From an uncultured bacterium (GTDB lineage: Bacteria; Patescibacteriota; JABMPQ01; CAVVCK01), in contig CAVVCK010000001.1 in assembly GCA_963746775.1 (NCBI GenBank), positions 83,050 through 147,049 on the forward strand: a stretch of 64,000 nt of DNA. Direction: 5' to 3'. Shown here in pieces: positions 53,534 to 62,602 of the stretch. Below the pieces are notes generated by a model that did not search any database, was not told where the DNA came from, and worked only from the letters and a program-made list of their open reading frames with translations. A program made the position numbers and the translations under genes. Numbering within the stretch: the stretch's first letter is position 1; each line of letters starts with the position of its first letter.

Positions 53534-55228
53534 TTAATATTCATCAGCTCCAATATCGATTCCCGCACCTCGTGGTCTTGATTGACCGTCATAATCATCA
53601 GTAAGCCCTGATATGCTTTGCCCGTGATCTACAACCGAAGAAACAGATGATCCTAAATGTAGATTGCCACAGCTGAGACAAGTAAACCAGGAGGCCTGGG
53701 CGTTTTCAACATTATGAGCCACCGTACCGGAAGCTCCGTCTCTTTGTGATATAGCCTTATTAGTTAAATTATTAGTTATGGATACATTTTGAGTTGTAGA
53801 AAATCGATACTCTATAGCATTAGGATAGCTATTAGCCATATAGATAGTATTATTGTAAACTTCCGATCCTGTAGCTGATTCTAATCCTATACTAACATCC
53901 GCGAAGCCTTCGCTAGTATCATGATAGATCATATTATTGCGAATTATACCATTAACATGTCCCCTATCGGTACCTAGGCCAAAACCTATGCCCCGATCAC
54001 AATTCATAATTAAATTTTTCTCAACCAAGGTATTTTCTGACCCGCTCCAGAAATGTATAGCAAATTCAGCCGTGGTATCTGAAGGGCTTTTTATATTCTT
54101 GAAAGTATTACCACGCACAATCCAATTTTTACCATTATGCACATCTATCCCGCCTGTATAGTATTGAGAACCCTGCCCGGCACTAAATTCAAATAATGAA
54201 TTTAATACTAGCCCATTATCTGAGGTTTGACTCAAATTATCAGCATTATAGGCAGCTTTGATCATTTGTTCGCCTGTATCGAGGACATGAACATTTATAA
54301 CATTTAGTGAATCAATATCATCCTGTAACTGCACGGCATGATTAGCTACATTACGCATAGTTACATCCCGTACAGTAAAATTAGATCCATCCACATTGAA
54401 AATATGAGAAACAGACCCGGTCATACCATCTCCGCGTAAAACCACTGAGTCCCTATTCCCCGAGACACTTCTAACTGTTACGCCAGAAGCAGCTACCCAA
54501 ATCATATTATCCAGAGTATAAGTTCCATCAGCTAATAATATTGTTTTAGGACCACCATTCTCAGTAGCTGCGATAGCATTTAATAAGCCAGAAACACTAG
54601 AAACAGTAGTTGTTCTCGTATCTTCTACATTCGTGCCTGTATTATCATTTGAATTAGAGCTTGTGCTATTATCACTTGTACTAGATGAACTATCACTACT
54701 ATTATCGGTACTATTACTATTTGTGGAATTATCCACATTTACTGTCCCTACTTCTATTTTAGCTAAATCAGAATTAGTAATACCTAGTCCTAGATTGCGC
54801 ATTAATTGAAAGGCATCAGCGGGACGTCCCATATAGTACCTATGGAGATTAACGGGAGAGACATACCAGGCTTCACCGTGTAATTGTACTTGGATTAGTA
54901 TTCTACCTTTAACGTACTTAATCATGTCTTTATCAATAGTCCAGGAAGTACCGTTAATAGGTACACGAGCGAGATTAGCGTCAGTTGCCCCTAATCCTAG
55001 GGCTCTCATGATATTCCAGGCATCACGAGGTCTTCCCAGATAGTATCTTTTATAGTCTACTGGAGAAATATACCAGGCTTCACCGTTATTTTGTACCTGA
55101 AGAACTATCCGACCGGCGAGACGTTCGGCAGTGGAAGAAGCAGCTCTAGTGATAGAGATAGGAAATGAGGAGAAAAGAAGGGATAGGGAGACTATTAAAG
55201 ACATAAATATATAGATTGATTTTTTCAT
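53534..55228 (-). CDS. Secreted right-handed parallel beta-helix (pectate-lyase-fold) protein with two N-terminal tandem repeats of about 75 aa and a Ser/Asn/Thr-rich linker
   Basis: 564 aa. Signal peptide. Repeats RIVLQVQNNGEAWYISPVDYKRYYLGRPRDAWNIMRALGLGATDANLARVP and RILIQVQLHGEAWYVSPVNLHRYYMGRPADAFQLMRNLGLGITNSDLAKIE. A low-complexity Ser/Asn/Thr-rich linker. C-terminal region with periodic N..I..N / GNTF.NI beta-helix rungs. Confidence 0.55.
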   Translation of the reverse strand: MKKSIYIFMSLIVSLSLLFSSFPISITRAASSTAERLAGRIVLQVQNNGEAWYISPVDYKRYYLGRPRDAWNIMRALGLGATDANLARVPINGTSWTIDKDMIKYVKGRILIQVQLHGEAWYVSPVNLHRYYMGRPADAFQLMRNLGLGITNSDLAKIEVGTVNVDNSTNSNSTDNSSDSSSSTSDNSTSSNSNDNTGTNVEDTRTTTVSSVSGLLNAIAATENGGPKTILLADGTYTLDNMIWVAASGVTVRSVSGNRDSVVLRGDGMTGSVSHIFNVDGSNFTVRDVTMRNVANHAVQLQDDIDSLNVINVHVLDTGEQMIKAAYNADNLSQTSDNGLVLNSLFEFSAGQGSQYYTGGIDVHNGKNWIVRGNTFKNIKSPSDTTAEFAIHFWSGSENTLVEKNLIMNCDRGIGFGLGTDRGHVNGIIRNNMIYHDTSEGFADVSIGLESATGSEVYNNTIYMANSYPNAIEYRFSTTQNVSITNNLTNKAISQRDGASGTVAHNVENAQASWFTCLSCGNLHLGSSVSSVVDHGQSISGLTDDYDGQSRPRGAGIDIGADEY

Positions 55229-56578: not shown

Positions 56579-57181
56579 TTATTCGCACAAATCAGCTTCA
56601 AAAGCTCCATCAATAGCGGTCTTGCCATCATCAAAATCAATTTTAGCATAACCTTTGACTTTATTATTTTCTGTATCAATGTCTGTAACTACAATTTTTG
56701 CTGCCCAATCAACATTAACACTCATAGGCGTGCCATCTTCCTGCTCATAGTGATAATAGGCATGGTAGTCATCAAATTCAATTTCATCTTCCATTTTCTT
56801 TTCAAATGTTCCGATCTCTAACATTTTAGAGCTAAAATTTACAGCATCATTATCTACTACTACGCCGCAAGTCTCGTCTGGTGCCATATCAGAAAAGCTC
56901 CAGCTATACTCATCATCCCATTTTTGAATTTGCACATTGGGAATAGTTACATCCTTTTCATTTATCTTGCCAGCAACTTCAGTAGTCGCAATGCCGGATT
57001 GATCAATAGCTGACGTCCAATTATCATCATAGGAAGTGGCCTCAGTGGCTTCTTCTGATGATGAATCGTCATTGGTATTGGTAGAGGTAGTACAGCCTCC
57101 TCCTGCCAAGATCATAAGTGATAAGGCTGCAATCATTGACAGCGCTGCCTTCTTTCCAAAAAACTCTTTGAGTTTTTTCAT
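56579..57181 (-). CDS. Hypothetical lipoprotein
   Basis: 200 aa. Signal peptide with lipobox LAGGGC, a Ser/Thr/Asp-rich linker, then a small acidic domain ending in Cys. Confidence 0.45.
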   Translation of the reverse strand: MKKLKEFFGKKAALSMIAALSLMILAGGGCTTSTNTNDDSSSEEATEATSYDDNWTSAIDQSGIATTEVAGKINEKDVTIPNVQIQKWDDEYSWSFSDMAPDETCGVVVDNDAVNFSSKMLEIGTFEKKMEDEIEFDDYHAYYHYEQEDGTPMSVNVDWAAKIVVTDIDTENNKVKGYAKIDFDDGKTAIDGAFEADLCE

Positions 57182-57307: not shown

Positions 57308-58783
57308 TTAAGAAAAATATTTTCTCAATTCCTCCAATATCCTCACCATAGCCAAGGTATCCAGCTTGCAATACTTAATTAAATCCTCATAAATTTTTTC
57401 CGCCTCCTGCTTGGAAATCTTCGGGTCAATCATTTCCCGCCATTTATTGGAGGCAGTTTCCCCTTCATGGATATCAAGTTCTGAATATTTCAAATCAGGG
57501 CATAATACCGGCAATACTTTCTTAATTGAGGCGCTGCCGTGAAAATCCTGGTGCACATAAAATCCTTTGCGGAAGACAGACATTAAATCAAACATCCTAT
57601 TATTTACACCTTCAAAAAACTCAACAAATTCCGGATACCTTTCGCCCATTTCCCGATTGCACCCTTTCTCAAAGCCCATATTCCAAGCTAGAATTGTCCC
57701 CCGAGAACCAATCAATTTACTAAGCTCCTTGGCTAATCCCGGTGATGGGTCCCGGAAGCCTTGAGCCAAATATTCATAATGCTTTAATTCCGCGCCTTCA
57801 CTTTCCTGTACATGCAGAGAATATTGAAAAATCATGCGCTGGTAAGGACGATAGCCATCAAACAAGGGCACGCCCGGTGCAAAGGTTTCATAATCCAAAA
57901 AATACAAAGGATACTCTAATTTCTCCAGTTCATCCTTAATATTATCTTTTTCAATATGAACCTCGCCCGTCTTTTCCACGCTCCAATGCCGCAGCCCCGC
58001 CTGGCTGGTTACCACCCCCTCCGGAATATCCTTAATCTCCATAATCCCTTCATCAATAAGCATATTTAATTTCTTTTCATTCAATCCGCCGGCTATGCTG
58101 TAAATAGATCTTGCCGGCAAGTCCTTCCAACAATAAGAAAGAAAGGTGCACTCATAAGGATTATTGCACTGTTTTAAAATCCTCTGCTGCACTTCCTCTT
58201 TTTCTTTCATAATTGAAAGAGCCTTATCAATTTGAAGCTTCGTTTCTTCTTCTAAATATTTAACCTGGTCCGTCACCTCCACCAGTTCCAATAATTTATC
58301 CGGCTCTATCTCTCCTGACTTAACATATTTATTATTAATATGATAAATAAAAAGCTTGTCGACTTTTAAACCTGCTCCTTCCAGGCAAATCTTTTGGAAG
58401 GCTAAATCGTAAATATTGATATCTTTGACAGAAGTGGAGCTTTTTACTTCGTAAATATTATAGGCTTCCCCATCGTCAGCTAATTGCAAGATATCAGAGC
58501 GGCAAAAAAGATTTTTAGCGGAAAAAGTAGGCTGGAATATAACTTTTGCTTTTTCTTTTATTAATTTAGTGGTTTCAAATATGGATTCCTTAAATCCCTC
58601 TACTTGAGCATTTTTCCCATCAGGAAAAAGCTTATAGGCATAAGTCTCCACCTTATAGCCTTCATCAAAAATCTTCTGCAAATTCTCATCCACTTCCGCA
58701 GGCAATAAATCTTTTCTATTCTTATAGAGCCATAAATACTTTTTACACTGGATAAATTTTATAAAATCGGATTTGGTTAGCAT
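57308..58783 (-). CDS. DUF2779-type fusion of a Cas4/RecB-like PD-(D/E)xK nuclease (with a 4-Cys cluster) and a C-terminal RNase-H-fold 3'-5' exonuclease-like domain
   Basis: 491 aa. Cys13 plus CNNPYECTFLSYC (C-x5-C-x5-C) fit a Cas4/AddB-style Fe-S cluster. RSDILQL ... YEVKSS form a D...E-x-K nuclease motif. C-terminal YFLDYETF ... H ... D resembles DEDD exonuclease motif I. GC content is visibly higher than the neighbours (for example ccccgcctggctggttaccaccccctccgg). Confidence 0.55.
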   Translation of the reverse strand: MLTKSDFIKFIQCKKYLWLYKNRKDLLPAEVDENLQKIFDEGYKVETYAYKLFPDGKNAQVEGFKESIFETTKLIKEKAKVIFQPTFSAKNLFCRSDILQLADDGEAYNIYEVKSSTSVKDINIYDLAFQKICLEGAGLKVDKLFIYHINNKYVKSGEIEPDKLLELVEVTDQVKYLEEETKLQIDKALSIMKEKEEVQQRILKQCNNPYECTFLSYCWKDLPARSIYSIAGGLNEKKLNMLIDEGIMEIKDIPEGVVTSQAGLRHWSVEKTGEVHIEKDNIKDELEKLEYPLYFLDYETFAPGVPLFDGYRPYQRMIFQYSLHVQESEGAELKHYEYLAQGFRDPSPGLAKELSKLIGSRGTILAWNMGFEKGCNREMGERYPEFVEFFEGVNNRMFDLMSVFRKGFYVHQDFHGSASIKKVLPVLCPDLKYSELDIHEGETASNKWREMIDPKISKQEAEKIYEDLIKYCKLDTLAMVRILEELRKYFS

Positions 58784-58823
58784 TTTTTATTTTTGGAAAT
58801 TAAATGATTTTATTTAACTATAT

Positions 58824-59315
58824 CTATTTTCTACGTCCATCTTTATTATATAGATTAACAACATAACTTTTATTAACAATCCTAATTTTTTTATTATTGT
58901 ATTCAAACAGATTATTTTTAAAATAATCTGCCTTGCAGAAATATTTTTTTAATTTTCCATTTTTATTAGCCTTAAAATAATTCTCAATAATAACAGGCAT
59001 TTCTACTTCATAATGATATCTAGAGGAAAAATTTCTAAAACTTATTTTCTGGTAGCCTATCAACATTTTCTCTGGTTTAAAGACTACCCAATTTTTATTT
59101 TTAAAATCATTAATAATATTATTATTGTTAATTATTGTGCTAGCAGTATCCTCAAAAATATGAAAATCTATATCGCCATGAGGCCTAGGTTTCTCAAAAG
59201 AACCCTTACAGAGTTCCCAAGCTATGCCTCCGCCTAACCAATAATCTATCTTGTACTTATTAAATATTTCAGAAAATAAACAAATAGTTTCTAATTGATG
59301 TTGAAATTTATTCAT
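58824..59315 (-). CDS. Small Lnu(A)/LinA-like (lincosamide-nucleotidyltransferase-like) minimal nucleotidyltransferase
   Basis: 163 aa. YWLGGGIAWELCKGSFEKPRPHGDIDFHIF parallels Lnu(A) YWLDGGWG ... HRDIDIDF (about 161 aa): a GG ... D-x-D nucleotidyltransferase core of the same size class. Confidence 0.55.
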   Translation of the reverse strand: MNKFQHQLETICLFSEIFNKYKIDYWLGGGIAWELCKGSFEKPRPHGDIDFHIFEDTASTIINNNNIINDFKNKNWVVFKPEKMLIGYQKISFRNFSSRYHYEVEMPVIIENYFKANKNGKLKKYFCKADYFKNNLFEYNNKKIRIVNKSYVVNLYNKDGRRK

Positions 59316-59327
59316 TAGACTTTTTCA

Positions 59328-60263
59328 TTATCCCTTAAACTCCCTAATATATTTCCCAAACAATTTTTGAAATAAAACAGTTCTTTTATATAGCCATTCA
59401 AAATAATCTTCATAGTTATCTTGCTCAAAAATAAAAGGAACTTTCTTTTCTATTTTTATACGAGATGCTATAGAAGCATCAACCCATTCTACTTTTTCTT
59501 CAATTTCTTTTTCTATCTCATCTTTTTTATCTCGTAAATAGTTAAATAATTCTTTATTTCTATTTATATACACTTCACAACCTAATATATTTTCCCTGGA
59601 ATTTATTGTTAAGCCTATATGTGCATCGGAATTTCCCATGCTAAAATTATACCAATGTTGAGGACGTGGCGACTGTAATCTTATTCTGCTATCCTTTGAT
59701 TTTATGTATTCTTTCAACTTTGTCCAAAATTCTAATTGTTTAAGCTTAGTATCTGTCAATTCACTATTTTTCGGGCTTGTCTTTATTGTTTTTGCCCATT
59801 CATTAGGACTGATAATAATTTCAAATTTAGGTGCCGGATTTGAATCTTCTATCTGCCATAATTCAATCTTAATTAGAAAAAAACCAATACCTTCATCGGT
59901 ATGCTCATTTAACCATTCAATTGCTTTTTTATGTTCTTCTCTTTCATTTTTTACAATCCAGATAATAATTTCTGCGTCATACCCGGAAGCATAAGTTATA
60001 ATTTTACCAAGGTGATCATGATTGGTATCTTCTAGTTGATTCTCAATAATTATTTTTCTTTCCGAATTTTCCTCTTTAGCTAAAATATCTACATTAAATT
60101 TACCAACACTGGCCTCTGTTTGTATTAGTTCAATATTTACTCCAATTTCTTCGCTTAATAAATCTAAATATTCTTCTGAAGCTAGCCAGTTTGTAAATTC
60201 ATTTTCATGTACCCATTCTTTTCTTAAATCAACATTCTTTAACTTTGATAATGGTTTTTTCAT
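59328..60263 (-). CDS. DUF4268-like protein with an N-terminal PD-(D/E)xK (NucS/RecB-like) endonuclease domain
   Basis: 311 aa. WVHENEFTNWL ... VGKFNVDILAKEENSERKIIIENQLEDTNHDHLGKIITYASG shows the D ... (I/V)ENQ ... HLG pattern of this nuclease family. The C-terminal half is uncharacterised. Confidence 0.5.
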   Translation of the reverse strand: MKKPLSKLKNVDLRKEWVHENEFTNWLASEEYLDLLSEEIGVNIELIQTEASVGKFNVDILAKEENSERKIIIENQLEDTNHDHLGKIITYASGYDAEIIIWIVKNEREEHKKAIEWLNEHTDEGIGFFLIKIELWQIEDSNPAPKFEIIISPNEWAKTIKTSPKNSELTDTKLKQLEFWTKLKEYIKSKDSRIRLQSPRPQHWYNFSMGNSDAHIGLTINSRENILGCEVYINRNKELFNYLRDKKDEIEKEIEEKVEWVDASIASRIKIEKKVPFIFEQDNYEDYFEWLYKRTVLFQKLFGKYIREFKG

Positions 60264-60327
60264 TTTTTGTCTTTTTTTAATATTTAATAGGCTAAAGATT
60301 TAAAGGTAGACATTTTAATAATTTAAC

Positions 60328-61047
60328 TTACTTTTTCCAATAATCTAGATTTGAAAACTCATCTACTGCACAATAATAATTTTTTAAGTCTTGTGACATT
60401 TTATTAATGATCTGACCTCTTATTATTTTACCATTCTCTAATCTTCCCTTCTTTATTGGCCAATACTTTTGTTCTTTTACAAACAGTCCGGGTAAAAAAC
60501 CAAACATCATATAAAACGACTCAAATTCTTTATTTACTGCTAACAATTTTCCAAGCACATCAATAGGAATTAAGTTTGAATATAAATTTATTTTATAGCT
60601 CAAACTCATCCTAATAAAAGGCAGGTTAATTTGTAAATGTTCCCAATCCTTAATCGTCATGCCTTTTAGTTTTTCTTCGAGATCAATTTCTGATACTTTT
60701 TTTAATATTTTTAATAATTCATTTGTCGCATTCTTCACACCACCAGAACCTACTACAAATCCTAGTGGTTCACTCATGTGACTTATAAGCATATTTCTAA
60801 GCGATAATAGATCATCTTTTGCAATATTATATGCTTCTTTATATTTCCTTATTTCTCGCTCTTTTAAAAGCTTATCAACAATAAAGATAGTAAAAATAAT
60901 AATTACAAAAGAAGCGCTAAGATTGATAAAAAAATCTCCAAATTTATTATCAAAACAGAAACCTAATGCAAAACTTATAAACGAACAAAGAAGCAAAATA
61001 ATTATCAATTTTTTATTCTCTTTTATAACCGCTATAATTTTCTTCAT
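60328..61047 (-). CDS. Hypothetical protein with two N-terminal TM helices and a soluble domain of about 160 aa
   Basis: 239 aa. TM1 LIIILLLCSFISFALGFCF, TM2 FFINLSASFVIIIFTIFIV. No recognisable catalytic motif. Confidence 0.4.
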   Translation of the reverse strand: MKKIIAVIKENKKLIIILLLCSFISFALGFCFDNKFGDFFINLSASFVIIIFTIFIVDKLLKEREIRKYKEAYNIAKDDLLSLRNMLISHMSEPLGFVVGSGGVKNATNELLKILKKVSEIDLEEKLKGMTIKDWEHLQINLPFIRMSLSYKINLYSNLIPIDVLGKLLAVNKEFESFYMMFGFLPGLFVKEQKYWPIKKGRLENGKIIRGQIINKMSQDLKNYYCAVDEFSNLDYWKK

Positions 61048-61050
61048 TTT

Positions 61051-61758
61051 TTATGATAATAAAACCTTATTCCATTGTAAATTAATATATTCCAAAACTT
61101 TAACCCATGAAATGTTTAGAATATCAACAATTGGAACAAAATCATCAAGATTTAATTTTAATCTATTTTCAGGATTCGTTATTTTCCTCCAATCAAAATA
61201 TTCTTTCTCTTCTCCTATTTTGGGTAAACAAAAATTTCTTTCCTTTACCAAACCTGGCAATATTCGACCATGAACCAAAAAATTTCTATAATTTTTTATT
61301 TCCTGCAGAGGGTATAAATTCATTTTTTGCCAGGCTGCACAAGCTTCTTTGCTACCATTATTTTTATTTTTTCTCTTCTCCAACCATGGATCGTAATCAG
61401 TAGGATTCCCAAATCTTTCTAGTAACTCAAACACTAAATCAAGCGAGCCACTTAATCTAGTCATACCGTCTATCAAATCATCATGATTAATAAGATTCTT
61501 TTTTAAAATATCAAATACTCTAATAAGATGCCTTAGTATTGAATAATGCAACTGCGCAATACAAACGTCATTTGCCGTTTTCCCTATTATTTTTAGTTCT
61601 TCGTCCGTCTTAAAATGAATATCTTTTGGTCTATTAGTTAATGACACAACATTTTTCAACCAAAAATCTTCATAACATTGTAACTGGTCTTTAATAAATA
61701 TATCCCAGTATTTTTGTTCATAATAATCGCCATCAACGGCTAGATTGTAACTACTCAT
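61051..61758 (-). CDS. Hypothetical protein with an Rx4H HEPN-like motif (candidate HEPN RNase)
   Basis: 235 aa. EIKNYRNFLVHGRIL contains R-N-x3-H-G, similar to HepT/Abi/Cas13-type HEPN catalytic motifs. The domain call rests on the motif alone. Confidence 0.35.
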   Translation of the reverse strand: MSSYNLAVDGDYYEQKYWDIFIKDQLQCYEDFWLKNVVSLTNRPKDIHFKTDEELKIIGKTANDVCIAQLHYSILRHLIRVFDILKKNLINHDDLIDGMTRLSGSLDLVFELLERFGNPTDYDPWLEKRKNKNNGSKEACAAWQKMNLYPLQEIKNYRNFLVHGRILPGLVKERNFCLPKIGEEKEYFDWRKITNPENRLKLNLDDFVPIVDILNISWVKVLEYINLQWNKVLLS

Positions 61759-62437
61759 ATTTGCGTTAAAACTTTATCAATTTTCTCCTCCATTATTTTA
61801 ATCAGCTTTTTGTTAGTATTAATAATTTCCTCCTCTTTTTTCACTTCAGCAACAAGCTGTTTTTGAATTTTAATTGAAGGAAGTGGAATCTTAATTTTTT
61901 CGAGATCTCCTTTGGTAATATGAACAAGTCCAACTCCTCCATGTAAATTATTTTCCACATCTTTAACAGCCATTTTTAATGCATAATATAAAAATTTTTC
62001 AGTATATTTATCAGAAAAAATAACCTTAAATATATGTTGATTTAATATACCTTTTCCCCTATTCCAAATATGCGGACCAAAAGAAGTACCTCTAGAACCA
62101 GACCAAGAAAATAATAAATCCCCATTATTAATAATTATTTTGTCTTGTACTTTTCCTGAATAATAATTAAATTTTGCTTGTAAATTATTCAAATTTTGAA
62201 TTCTAATAATAGGCAATCCACCATTTTCCTCTTTTTCCCAATCTTTTGGTTTAAATGCCCTACCATTTATAAATTCACAAACCTCACCTAATTCTACCCA
62301 TTCAACACCCTCTAACTTCCTAACCTCTTCACCAAAATATCGTCTCTCTCTCTAGATTTTTAATAACTTCATAAGCAGCATTAATCGCACCTTGCTTAGT
62401 TTCTATCTGTTTAATTATATCTTTTTGAACCTTATAA
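61755..62437 (-). pseudogene. hsdS: Remnant of a type I restriction-modification specificity subunit: central conserved region, a frameshift, then one target-recognition domain and the C-terminal conserved helix
   Basis: Frame A, 62329-62437: FYKVQKDIIKQIETKQGAINAAYEVIKNLERETIFW-stop (HsdS conserved helix). Frame B, 61755-62351: RERRYFGEEVRKLEGVEWVELGEVCEFINGRAFKPKDWEKEENGGLPIIRIQNL ... HGGVGLVHITKGDLEKIKIPLPSIKIQKQLVAEV ... (a TRD plus the HsdS C-terminal motif). The tracked ORF starts at a TTG inside frame B. There is no ATG, and the two frames overlap out of phase. Confidence 0.6.
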
Positions 62438-62602
62438 AACATAATCAGCAAATTTATGTTTAGATTCTTCATTATTTGAATCTGGTTTCGTGTATGTTTC
62501 TAAACTAACATTGGCCTTATTTTTACCATCATCAGCTAATAACCATCCGCTATTTTTTAGAAGATTATCAATTTTTATTCTAGCTTGTGCTTCTTTAGAC
62601 AT
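62432..62602 (-). pseudogene. hsdR: Orphan N-terminal 56 codons of a type I restriction endonuclease R subunit (HsdR N-domain), truncated by deletion
   Basis: MSKEAQARIKIDNLLKNSGWLLADDGKNKANVSLETYTKPDSNNEESKHKFADYVL-stop is the HsdR N-terminal signature (IDxxL ... GW ... DYVL). It is immediately followed, out of frame, by the hsdS fragment. No hsdM is present. Confidence 0.5.

Follow-up and report, generated by a model that had tools for sequence, protein, structure and literature searches.

The locus described here raises the question of what a stand-alone protein with two nuclease-like domains does at the end of a run of restriction and defence-type genes. It lies in a 64,000-nucleotide stretch of contig CAVVCK010000001.1 (positions 83,050 to 147,049 of assembly GCA_963746775.1) from an uncultured member of the Patescibacteriota, and we refer to this whole stretch as the window. 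An initial annotation of the window had described the gene product as a Cas4-like nuclease joined to an RNase-H-fold exonuclease-like domain, the architecture of the DUF2779 family, and searches with PADLOC, Pfam and Foldseek bore this out. Both here and in most of the Patescibacteria that we examined, the DUF2779 gene comes last, tightly coupled, after a variable set of genes rich in restriction-modification (R-M) or defence functions. We give a probability of about one in two to the idea that the protein is a nuclease that processes or cleans up linear DNA ends and is ancillary to the restriction or defence cassette upstream of it. Such a nuclease would probably also serve repair.

An open reading frame (ORF) scan confirmed the exact coordinates of the gene, which has an ATG start and encodes 491 amino acids followed by a stop. 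The Pfam family DUF2779 (PF11074) matched amino acids 294–419 with 134.5 bits, against a gathering cutoff of 23.3, and the match covered model positions 1–126 of 126; a second Pfam scan of the protein gave E=7e-40. The N-terminus, MLTKSDF, agrees with the N-termini of the homologues. These number more than 7900 database proteins, the best having 90% identity (E=5e-293). Nearly all are about 490 amino acids long and align from end to end, and those that carry a name are called 'DUF2779 domain-containing protein' and come from metagenome-assembled genomes of Parcubacteria or Patescibacteria. Query coverage was 99–100% in most of the 120 homologues listed and at least 94% in all of them, and a set of 150 diverse representatives (34–50% identity) also aligned mostly end to end. 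When 1.84 billion cluster representatives were scanned exhaustively, 8276 clusters (50% identity) matched at E<=1e-3. One public contig (L101) carries an identical copy of the DUF2779 locus. The ORF is a real gene for a typical DUF2779 protein, and its layout of an N-terminal PD-(D/E)XK nuclease followed by a C-terminal DUF2779 domain is common to family members.

Within a large family already named by Pfam and NCBI the gene is an ordinary one, and the architecture is not new, having been published from sequence analysis (PMC3985635; PMC13621843). Within the RNase-H-like superfamily, PF11074 was classified as family F.17 of the 3'-5' exonuclease clade and was found to co-occur with a Cas4-like DUF83 domain (Majorek 2014, PMC3985635). 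More recently, the quasi-essential protein MMSYN1_0389 of JCVI-syn3.0 was described as a fusion of two nucleases, one Cas4-like and one of the DEDD(y) type; both of its domains are predicted to be active, its best HHpred match is MrfB, and the authors concluded that its function has to extend 'beyond bacterial immunity' (mSphere 2026, PMC13621843). A transposon mutant in the DUF2779 gene of Mycoplasma bovis was growth-deficient in cell culture, and the same growth-deficient set held mutants in replication and repair, signalling and nucleotide metabolism (PMC7373297). Our literature search found no paper with biochemistry or a defence-island association for DUF2779, and the coupling to defence operons is the sole element of the present analysis that goes beyond published descriptions. 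One member of the family is quasi-essential in a minimal cell, and constraint in Patescibacteria is very strong.

To describe the two halves of the protein, we combined family searches, residue conservation and structure prediction. An AlphaFold2 model of the full-length protein (pLDDT 88.9, pTM 0.81) has two alpha/beta domains linked by four short helices. Its top Foldseek match in the PDB was the Cas4 protein Pcal_0546 (4R5Q; E=4e-4, probability 1.0), with MGME1 next. The hidden Markov models (HMMs) of Cas4 in PADLOC matched amino acids 3–220 at profile positions 6–159 of 161 (E=9e-7), and in five close homologues the Pfam family Cas_Cas4 scored 25.8–29.2 bits, above its gathering score, with alignments that reach profile position 159 of 160 and run through the cysteine cluster. 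The RecB-type D...ExK residues and the conserved glutamine, as in Cas4, are present as D97, E112-x-K114 and Q130. These residues do not vary in an alignment of 24 homologues, and their conservation in the alignment of the 150 diverse homologues is at least 98%. By sequence and model, the N-terminal domain is Cas4-like.

The canonical spacing of the cysteines in Cas4 and AddB is C-x2-C-x5-C. The initial annotation had proposed a cysteine cluster typical of these proteins. Four conserved cysteines are indeed present (C13, C206, C212 and C218), but their C-x5-C-x5-C spacing is the DUF2779 family's own variant and not the typical Cas4/AddB pattern, since it differs from the canonical one. All four are invariant in the 24 homologues, lie at the expected ends of the domain and are spanned by the Cas4 HMM matches. 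Of 261 full-length homologues, 176 have the C-x5-C-x5-C pattern; the complete quartet is present in 117 of 120 close and 93 of 141 diverse homologues, so that a minority of the family lacks it. Mycoplasma DUF2779 proteins have been reported to have lost the full quartet (PMC13621843). The four cysteines probably hold an Fe-S cluster.

The C-terminal half is a DUF2779 domain that, from its motifs and predicted structure, has an RNase-H fold of the DEDDy type. The YFLDYET stretch singled out in the initial annotation as motif I (Exo I) contains D297-x-E299, and both acidic residues are invariant in the 24 homologues and in all 150 diverse homologues. The Exo II-like motif is W367-N-x2-F-E372, with Glu replacing Asp; this acidic residue, which we chose by motif inspection, is kept in 150 of 150 diverse homologues. 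For Exo III, Y471-x3-D475, both residues are kept in 149 of 149, and D399 is likewise near-invariant. The homologues also have weak DNA_pol_A_exo1 Pfam matches over the Exo III region. The full-length model gave RNase-H matches only weakly in Foldseek and the C-terminal domain was therefore predicted again alone (pLDDT 86.6). Its best PDB TM-scores were to a family-B polymerase, and Foldseek against the viral structure library BFVD returned PolB exonuclease, DnaQ-like and DEDDh exonucleases (E 6e-4 to 5e-3, probability 0.99–1.0). The at least 98% conservation of catalytic residues in the diverse homologues argues that both domains are catalytically active. Between them, the four short helices of the linker are conserved in sequence in the 24-homologue alignment. 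The linker is possibly helix-hairpin-helix-like; no HMM match backs this reading of the stretch IAGGLNEKKLNMLIDEGIMEIKDIP. The two nuclease domains and the linker account for all 491 amino acids, and the protein has no ATPase or helicase family match.

Two other features of the C-terminal domain were seen. C472, which directly follows the catalytic tyrosine (Y471-C472-x2-D475; codon 57368..57370), is kept in 148 of 149 diverse homologues, and no known DEDD motif accounts for it. The best structural matches of the domain were giant-virus proteins, which outscored every annotated exonuclease: A0A3G4ZWN9 of Faunusvirus (846 amino acids; TM 0.72, E=2e-6) and A0A3G5AGZ9 of Sylvanvirus (TM 0.64), both uncharacterised BFVD entries.

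Because the DEDD superfamily holds many RNases (PMC3985635), among them RNase D, RNase T and Orn, and because a PD-(D/E)XK domain could cut RNA, we considered whether the protein processes or degrades RNA. A nanoRNase mutant was also recovered beside the DUF2779 mutant in the M. bovis screen (PMC7373297). The nearest relatives of the two domains, however, act on DNA (Cas4, MGME1, polymerase proofreading domains and DnaQ-like exonucleases), as do the products of neighbouring genes, and MrfB as the best HHpred match of the JCVI-syn3.0 homologue also speaks against an RNA substrate (PMC13621843). We therefore regard an RNA enzyme as quite improbable and infer that DNA rather than RNA is the substrate.

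As a comparison, several known proteins share parts of this architecture. MMSYN1_0389 and its Mollicutes relatives (UU173, model NF045869) have the same order of Cas4-like PD-(D/E)XK and DEDD(y) domains and the same catalytic D...ExK and D-x-E...E...Y-x3-D residues, and they too are stand-alone, not linked to CRISPR and uncharacterised. They are longer, with an N-terminal region of about 380 amino acids, and keep two of the four cysteines (PMC13621843), whereas the window protein has the full C...C-x5-C-x5-C set. It falls below the threshold of the UU173 model, with 59.5 bits against a curated cutoff of 225 and its C-terminal part alone aligned, and on this score we assign it to a different subfamily. 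With Cas4 itself (Pcal_0546, 4R5Q; SSO0001, 4IC1; PF01930) it shares the PD-(D/E)XK core, the N-terminal cysteine and the C-terminal three-cysteine cluster, the domain size is similar, and Cas4 is its best structural match; it differs in its cysteine spacing, its fused second nuclease and a context without cas1, cas2 or CRISPR. The nuclease domains of AddB, RecB and Dna2 and of UvrD-Cas4-like fusions (pfam12705) are also of the Cas4 type, often with an Fe-S cluster, and process DNA ends. These proteins have a superfamily 1 helicase or helicase-like motor, whereas the window protein has a 3'-5' exonuclease and no ATPase. With DEDDy and DEDDh exonucleases (Pol I and Pol B proofreading domains, RNase D, DnaQ, and MrfB, 8UN9) it shares the RNase-H fold, D-x-E and Y-x3-D, and differs in its invariant Exo II glutamate and in the additional D399 and C472. 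In COG2251/PF13482 (RNHL family F.13), likewise uncharacterised, an RNase-H-like exonuclease is found together with a DUF83/Cas4-like domain (PMC3985635); it is a separate Pfam family, often with tandem AAA domains, and matched here only weakly (E=0.055).

The weak matches to Cas4 models could also be taken to mean that this is a bona fide CRISPR adaptation Cas4. Nowhere in the 64 kb did we find a CRISPR-like tandem array, a tRNA or an Rfam RNA. The genes at 53.5–62.2 kb, the interval to which the family HMM screen was confined, include no cas gene, and the recurrent neighbours in 81 homologous loci include neither cas1 nor cas2. The extra DEDDy domain and the different cysteine spacing also argue against it. 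In agreement with the earlier view that the gene is not CRISPR-associated, we rejected this association given that there is no array in the 64 kb, and we give a role in CRISPR adaptation next to no credence.

From the conserved catalytic residues in both domains, we have fair confidence in a biochemical reading in which the protein would act on linear DNA ends as a helicase-less enzyme, with a Cas4-type activity from 5' ends and a DEDDy activity in the 3'-5' direction. The N-terminal Cas4/AddB-type half would, by analogy with Cas4, cut or digest DNA from 5' ends, and the C-terminal half would be expected to digest from 3' ends. Together, the two halves of this stand-alone enzyme could act on both strands of a linear DNA end, processing or destroying it with no helicase motor, and the nuclease might serve whatever restriction or defence cassette lies upstream of it.

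To determine in which company DUF2779 genes are found, we surveyed 81 loci on contigs chosen as one genome per species, mostly from Patescibacteria. In 68 of 78 loci the gene immediately upstream (position –1) shared the strand of DUF2779, and in 45 the two were at most 25 bp apart. Such tight spacing was seen in 58% of the pairs compared with 35% of 982 background pairs (Fisher p=1.3e-4). Downstream gaps were wide, with a median of 72 bp. The commonest Pfam families among the 124 genes at positions –1 and –2 were ResIII (8 genes), Eco57I, GmrSD_N and N6_Mtase (6 each), N6_N4_Mtase, TaqI_C and MmeI (5 each) and AAA_13 (3); Eco57I and MmeI are of type IIG, and AAA_15 was also enriched. R-M and defence families made up at least 31 of these 124 genes (about 25%) compared with at least 8 of 150 genes that lie at least 6 kb away (about 5%; p=3.5e-6), both counts being lower bounds from top-25 family lists in non-overlapping categories and not per-gene calls. 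The distant genes were led by serine recombinases, ABC transporters and generic methyltransferases, with few R-M families. The 150 genes at +1 and +2 belonged to mixed families, and the enrichment was much stronger upstream than downstream. Defence-type genes are enriched directly upstream of the homologues; the initial annotation had named an enrichment of homologues in defence islands as a point to check.

No neighbour of DUF2779 was conserved across the survey. We rejected the idea of a conserved operon partner since clusters built with BLAST and phmmer covered no more than 15 of 83 loci overall and, for the –1 gene, no more than 4 of 78. Nearly all –1 genes are mutually unrelated, the largest family accounting for those 4. 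The commonest neighbour cluster within 10 kb, with scattered offsets, was a serine recombinase (15 of 83 loci), and serine recombinases also ranked first among the Pfam families of genes at distances of 6 kb or more. In the relative with the 90%-identical copy, the genes downstream are syntenic with those in the window and the upstream cassette is different, with DUF5677 and a ResIII/SWI2-SNF2 protein directly upstream at a gap of 3 bp. Two further relatives have, upstream, either an AlwI-type R-M system with methylases or genes for an EcoRI methylase, GmrSD/HNH, PDDEXK_3 and NYN proteins.

Outside Patescibacteria, defence-like contexts recur, including Qat with a dGTPase, WYL regulators, and PLD and DEAD helicases. 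On an Aliarcobacter plasmid (NZ_CP032824.1; L095, 1–14228) the order is Qat-like genes, DUF2779, an AAA protein, a hypothetical protein and a dGTPase; the spacing on both sides of DUF2779 is 1 bp. On Rhodoferax and Diaphorobacter plasmids (L097 and L103), DUF2779 stands between a gene for an ATP-binding protein of about 700 amino acids and one for a WYL-domain protein. On a Selenomonas plasmid it is near NERD, AAA and metallophosphoesterase genes. The last position in variable R-M and defence operons suggests, by analogy, an ancillary clean-up role. An ancillary role has also been proposed for UvrD-Cas4-like fusions (pfam12705), which occur in non-conserved R-M and WYL defence contexts (PMC5704561).

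In the window, the DUF2779 gene is on the same strand as the R-M/defence-like stretch and directly follows it, so that its placement at the edge of a putative defence island holds. The 40-bp gap to the Lnu/MNT-like gene reported earlier was confirmed and contains no terminator-like site. On the other side is a 126-bp gap with a promoter-like site, followed by a lipoprotein-like gene, an AI-2E transporter and the gene for a 564-amino-acid secreted protein; L21, RecR, YbaB and DnaB lie further downstream.

The same context could be read in another way. The protein may be a purely housekeeping nuclease that functions in recombinational repair, or in nucleotide salvage by digestion of imported DNA in the nucleotide-auxotrophic Patescibacteria and Mollicutes. 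It would then be functionally unconnected to the upstream genes, and the region upstream of its gene would be a hotspot for the landing of mobile R-M and defence cassettes. This is supported by the quasi-essential homologue in JCVI-syn3.0, stated to 'must play a role beyond immunity' (PMC13621843), and by the M. bovis mutant, which groups with RecD-like, HolA, NrnA and GdpP mutants (PMC7373297). The very strong purifying selection, the broad presence of the family in Patescibacteria, a third-position GC content that tracks that of the host as expected for resident genes (see below), the lack of a conserved partner, the prominence of serine recombinases both near to and far from the gene, and the turnover of cassettes between close relatives all fit this explanation as well. 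It does not account for a coupling to the –1 gene that is tighter than background, for the defence-type company repeated on plasmids of unrelated phyla, or for the direction of the enrichment, which is far stronger upstream than downstream. We consider a purely housekeeping role a tentative alternative and rank the ancillary role slightly higher because it explains the tighter-than-background coupling and the defence neighbours across phyla.

A number of points nevertheless weigh against an ancillary role as described here. In compact genomes, the tight spacing and nearby defence genes could simply mean that a conserved gene has an insertion hotspot beside it. That the protein is essential in a minimal Mycoplasma free of phage speaks against immunity as its primary role, and quasi-essentiality together with strong constraint argue equally well for housekeeping repair or salvage with a hotspot upstream. 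The lower-bound nature of the defence counts also belongs here. Regarding the domains, Pfam Cas_Cas4 scored 15.3 bits on the window protein itself, under the gathering threshold of 22.7, and searches with PDB sequences and profiles gave no residue-level match of the four cysteines to the Cas4 ligands. Foldseek matches of the C-terminal domain in the PDB were all RNase-H-like and not significant (E>=0.046). A profile of 150 sequences run against PDB sequences gave nothing useful; phmmer and profile searches there returned a sialic-acid-binding protein (E=0.14) and the Exo II stretch of Pol I (E=0.15), which are uninformative.

The initial annotation had called the gene markedly more GC-rich than its neighbours and had suggested horizontal acquisition. 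We found that the GC content of the whole gene (0.383 compared with a gene mean of 0.311; z=1.8) is not unique, as two downstream neighbours equal it (53534–55228, 0.391; 56579–57181, 0.386). The first part of the claim does hold for GC content at third codon positions (GC3), which reaches 0.413 where the gene mean is 0.226 (sd 0.057; z=3.3) and is the highest among credible genes in the window, for the region 57501–58500, which is the most GC-rich of 127 1-kb windows (0.402; z=2.7), and for tetranucleotide distance, by which the gene ranks third of 251 windows (z=3.3). Only the 564-amino-acid gene at 53.5–55.2 kb deviates more in tetranucleotides. The four to five upstream genes are A+T-rich (GC 0.25–0.29) with host-like GC3 (0.16–0.24). 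Among 72 homologous loci, DUF2779 GC3 follows host GC3 (r=0.87, median z=0.24), which led us to reject an intrinsic GC richness of the family, and the window copy is the most extreme outlier (z=4.1). The closest homologues, in three other genomes, have GC3 of 0.38–0.40, with a flanking GC3 of 0.20–0.29 (L098 and L099), 0.29 (L002) and 0.40 (L001).

Compared with L099, the DUF2779 protein is 90% identical and syntenic neighbours are 74–77% identical; compared with L002, the values are 75% for DUF2779 and 49–59% for RecR, L21 and YbaB. The proportion of synonymous differences (pS) is 0.58 for DUF2779 and 0.65–0.69 for its neighbours and exceeds 0.8 against L002, near saturation. The dN/dS ratio is 0.06 for DUF2779 compared with 0.09–0.13 for the neighbours. 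Given this near-saturation and the low dN/dS, the high identity mostly reflects strong purifying selection. We dropped recent acquisition as an explanation of the identity contrast since saturated synonymous sites could not separate transfer from constraint. The compositional shift is real and significant but is not proof of recent horizontal transfer; it may reflect old xenology with repeated exchange inside the clade, or codon selection.

This composition bears on a further explanation, that the gene is horizontally acquired defence cargo. It would have come in with the island or entered it later, and would act against phage as an autonomous nuclease of a single gene. The outlying GC3 and tetranucleotide composition, the defence-island contexts and the occasional copies on plasmids (32 of 72,556) and in IMG/VR (11 matches in 2.9 million contigs) are in keeping with this. 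By contrast, the host-like GC3 of the island genes indicates that DUF2779 was not acquired together with them, its synteny with L21-RecR-YbaB-DnaB is kept in a relative whose core identity is only 49–59%, and synonymous sites are close to saturated. The protein has no match to a PADLOC defence-candidate or PHROG model, and beyond weak Cas4 and Cas1g models nothing in PADLOC-DB 2.0 matched it. A constitutively active dual exonuclease of this kind would also have no obvious discriminator between self and non-self. We think it unlikely that the gene is such cargo; it is a resident, strongly constrained gene and not a CRISPR component. A phage origin was rejected as well, with no PHROG match, no full-length match in 50,697 phage records and only the 11 IMG/VR contigs.

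The context survey provides a testable lead in that DUF2779 is the constant last member of hypervariable restriction and defence operons. A broader proposal, which we regard as doubtful, is that DUF2779 nucleases are a widespread, unrecognised ancillary immunity module, a helicase-less dual exonuclease that ends changing R-M and defence operons. Such a module would be most visible in Patescibacteria and would also occur beside Qat, WYL-regulated and PLD/helicase systems on plasmids. If this is true, it would finish off DNA nicked or cut by the upstream system and could substitute for RecBCD/AddAB-type degradation in reduced genomes, which would explain quasi-essentiality in minimal cells. If the link to defence operons is functional, the family would supply a generic DNA clean-up nuclease for many systems in hosts that may lack RecBCD or AddAB.

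Coordinates of the DUF2779 gene, its parts and its upstream neighbours in the window.
Feature	Coordinates	Strand	Basis or remark
Complete DUF2779-family gene	57308..58783	–	ORF, PF11074, >7900 homologues, AlphaFold2 model
Predicted N-terminal Cas4-like PD-(D/E)XK nuclease domain, ~aa 1–222	58118..58783	–	PADLOC, Foldseek, Pfam, residue conservation
C13 codon	58745–58747	–	
C206-x5-C212-x5-C218 motif, putative Fe-S ligands with C13	58130..58168	–	Conservation
Helical linker, ~aa 223–288, with possibly helix-hairpin-helix-like stretch (IAGGLNEKKLNMLIDEGIMEIKDIP)	57920..58117	–	AlphaFold2, conservation in 24 homologues
Predicted C-terminal RNase-H-fold DEDDy-type exonuclease domain (DUF2779)	57311..57919	–	PF11074, conserved motifs, Foldseek
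40-bp A+T-rich spacer to upstream gene	58784..58823	–	Without terminator-like hairpin
163-aa minimal nucleotidyltransferase-like gene, last variable gene before DUF2779	58824..59315	–	Weak LnuA HMM
Variable A+T-rich R-M/defence-like stretch upstream	59328..62602	–	PADLOC, Pfam, translations
DUF4268 protein, PADLOC phage defence candidate PDC-S11	59328..60263	–	E=5e-116, almost full length
Gene pair of unknown function inside R-M/defence-like stretch	60328..61047, 61051..61758	–	3 bp apart
Solitary half-size HsdS and 56-aa HsdR_N-like stub ending in stop	~61755..62602	–	Pfam Methylase_S, PADLOC S-subunit

The features of the locus are collected in the table. The 163-amino-acid protein upstream of the spacer has a GG...DxD motif. 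Its only match is a very weak one to the LnuA HMM (E=1e-3), which scores 18.8 bits where the cutoff is 300, with no Pfam or PADLOC match, and no HEPN partner was identified among the neighbours of its gene. The DUF4268 protein, encoded two genes upstream of the nuclease, also matches phrog_27742. Of the gene pair that follows, one product is a membrane protein of 239 amino acids and the other a protein of 235 amino acids; neither matches a Pfam, NCBIfam, PADLOC or PHROG family.

Some further observations were made on genes around DUF2779. The downstream gene at 53534..55228 on the minus strand encodes a protein with a signal peptide in which duplicated N-terminal modules are followed by a linker rich in Ser and Asn and by a C-terminal half that resembles a beta-helix; no other part of the window is as strong a tetranucleotide outlier, and the protein has no Pfam match. 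In the survey, one cluster (c2; L050:6998–8101 and 13 other loci) comprises a protein of about 360 amino acids with Zn-ribbon-like CxxC pairs, encoded mostly 1–5 genes downstream of DUF2779 and without a Pfam or PHROG match. At one patescibacterial locus (L039:4430–15289), a serine recombinase and a ResIII gene lie on one side of DUF2779 and a phage terminase large subunit and a ParB-methylase on the other. This copy is therefore in or at the edge of a prophage-like element.

At the far end of the stretch upstream of DUF2779 in the window, the HsdS protein has one target-recognition domain and no HsdM or HsdR alongside, and together with the HsdR_N-like stub it looks like a decayed type I R-M system. 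The HsdS ORF is frameshifted in the window compared with an intact ORF of 228 amino acids on contig L101, and the other genes of the stretch encode identical proteins in the window and on L101.

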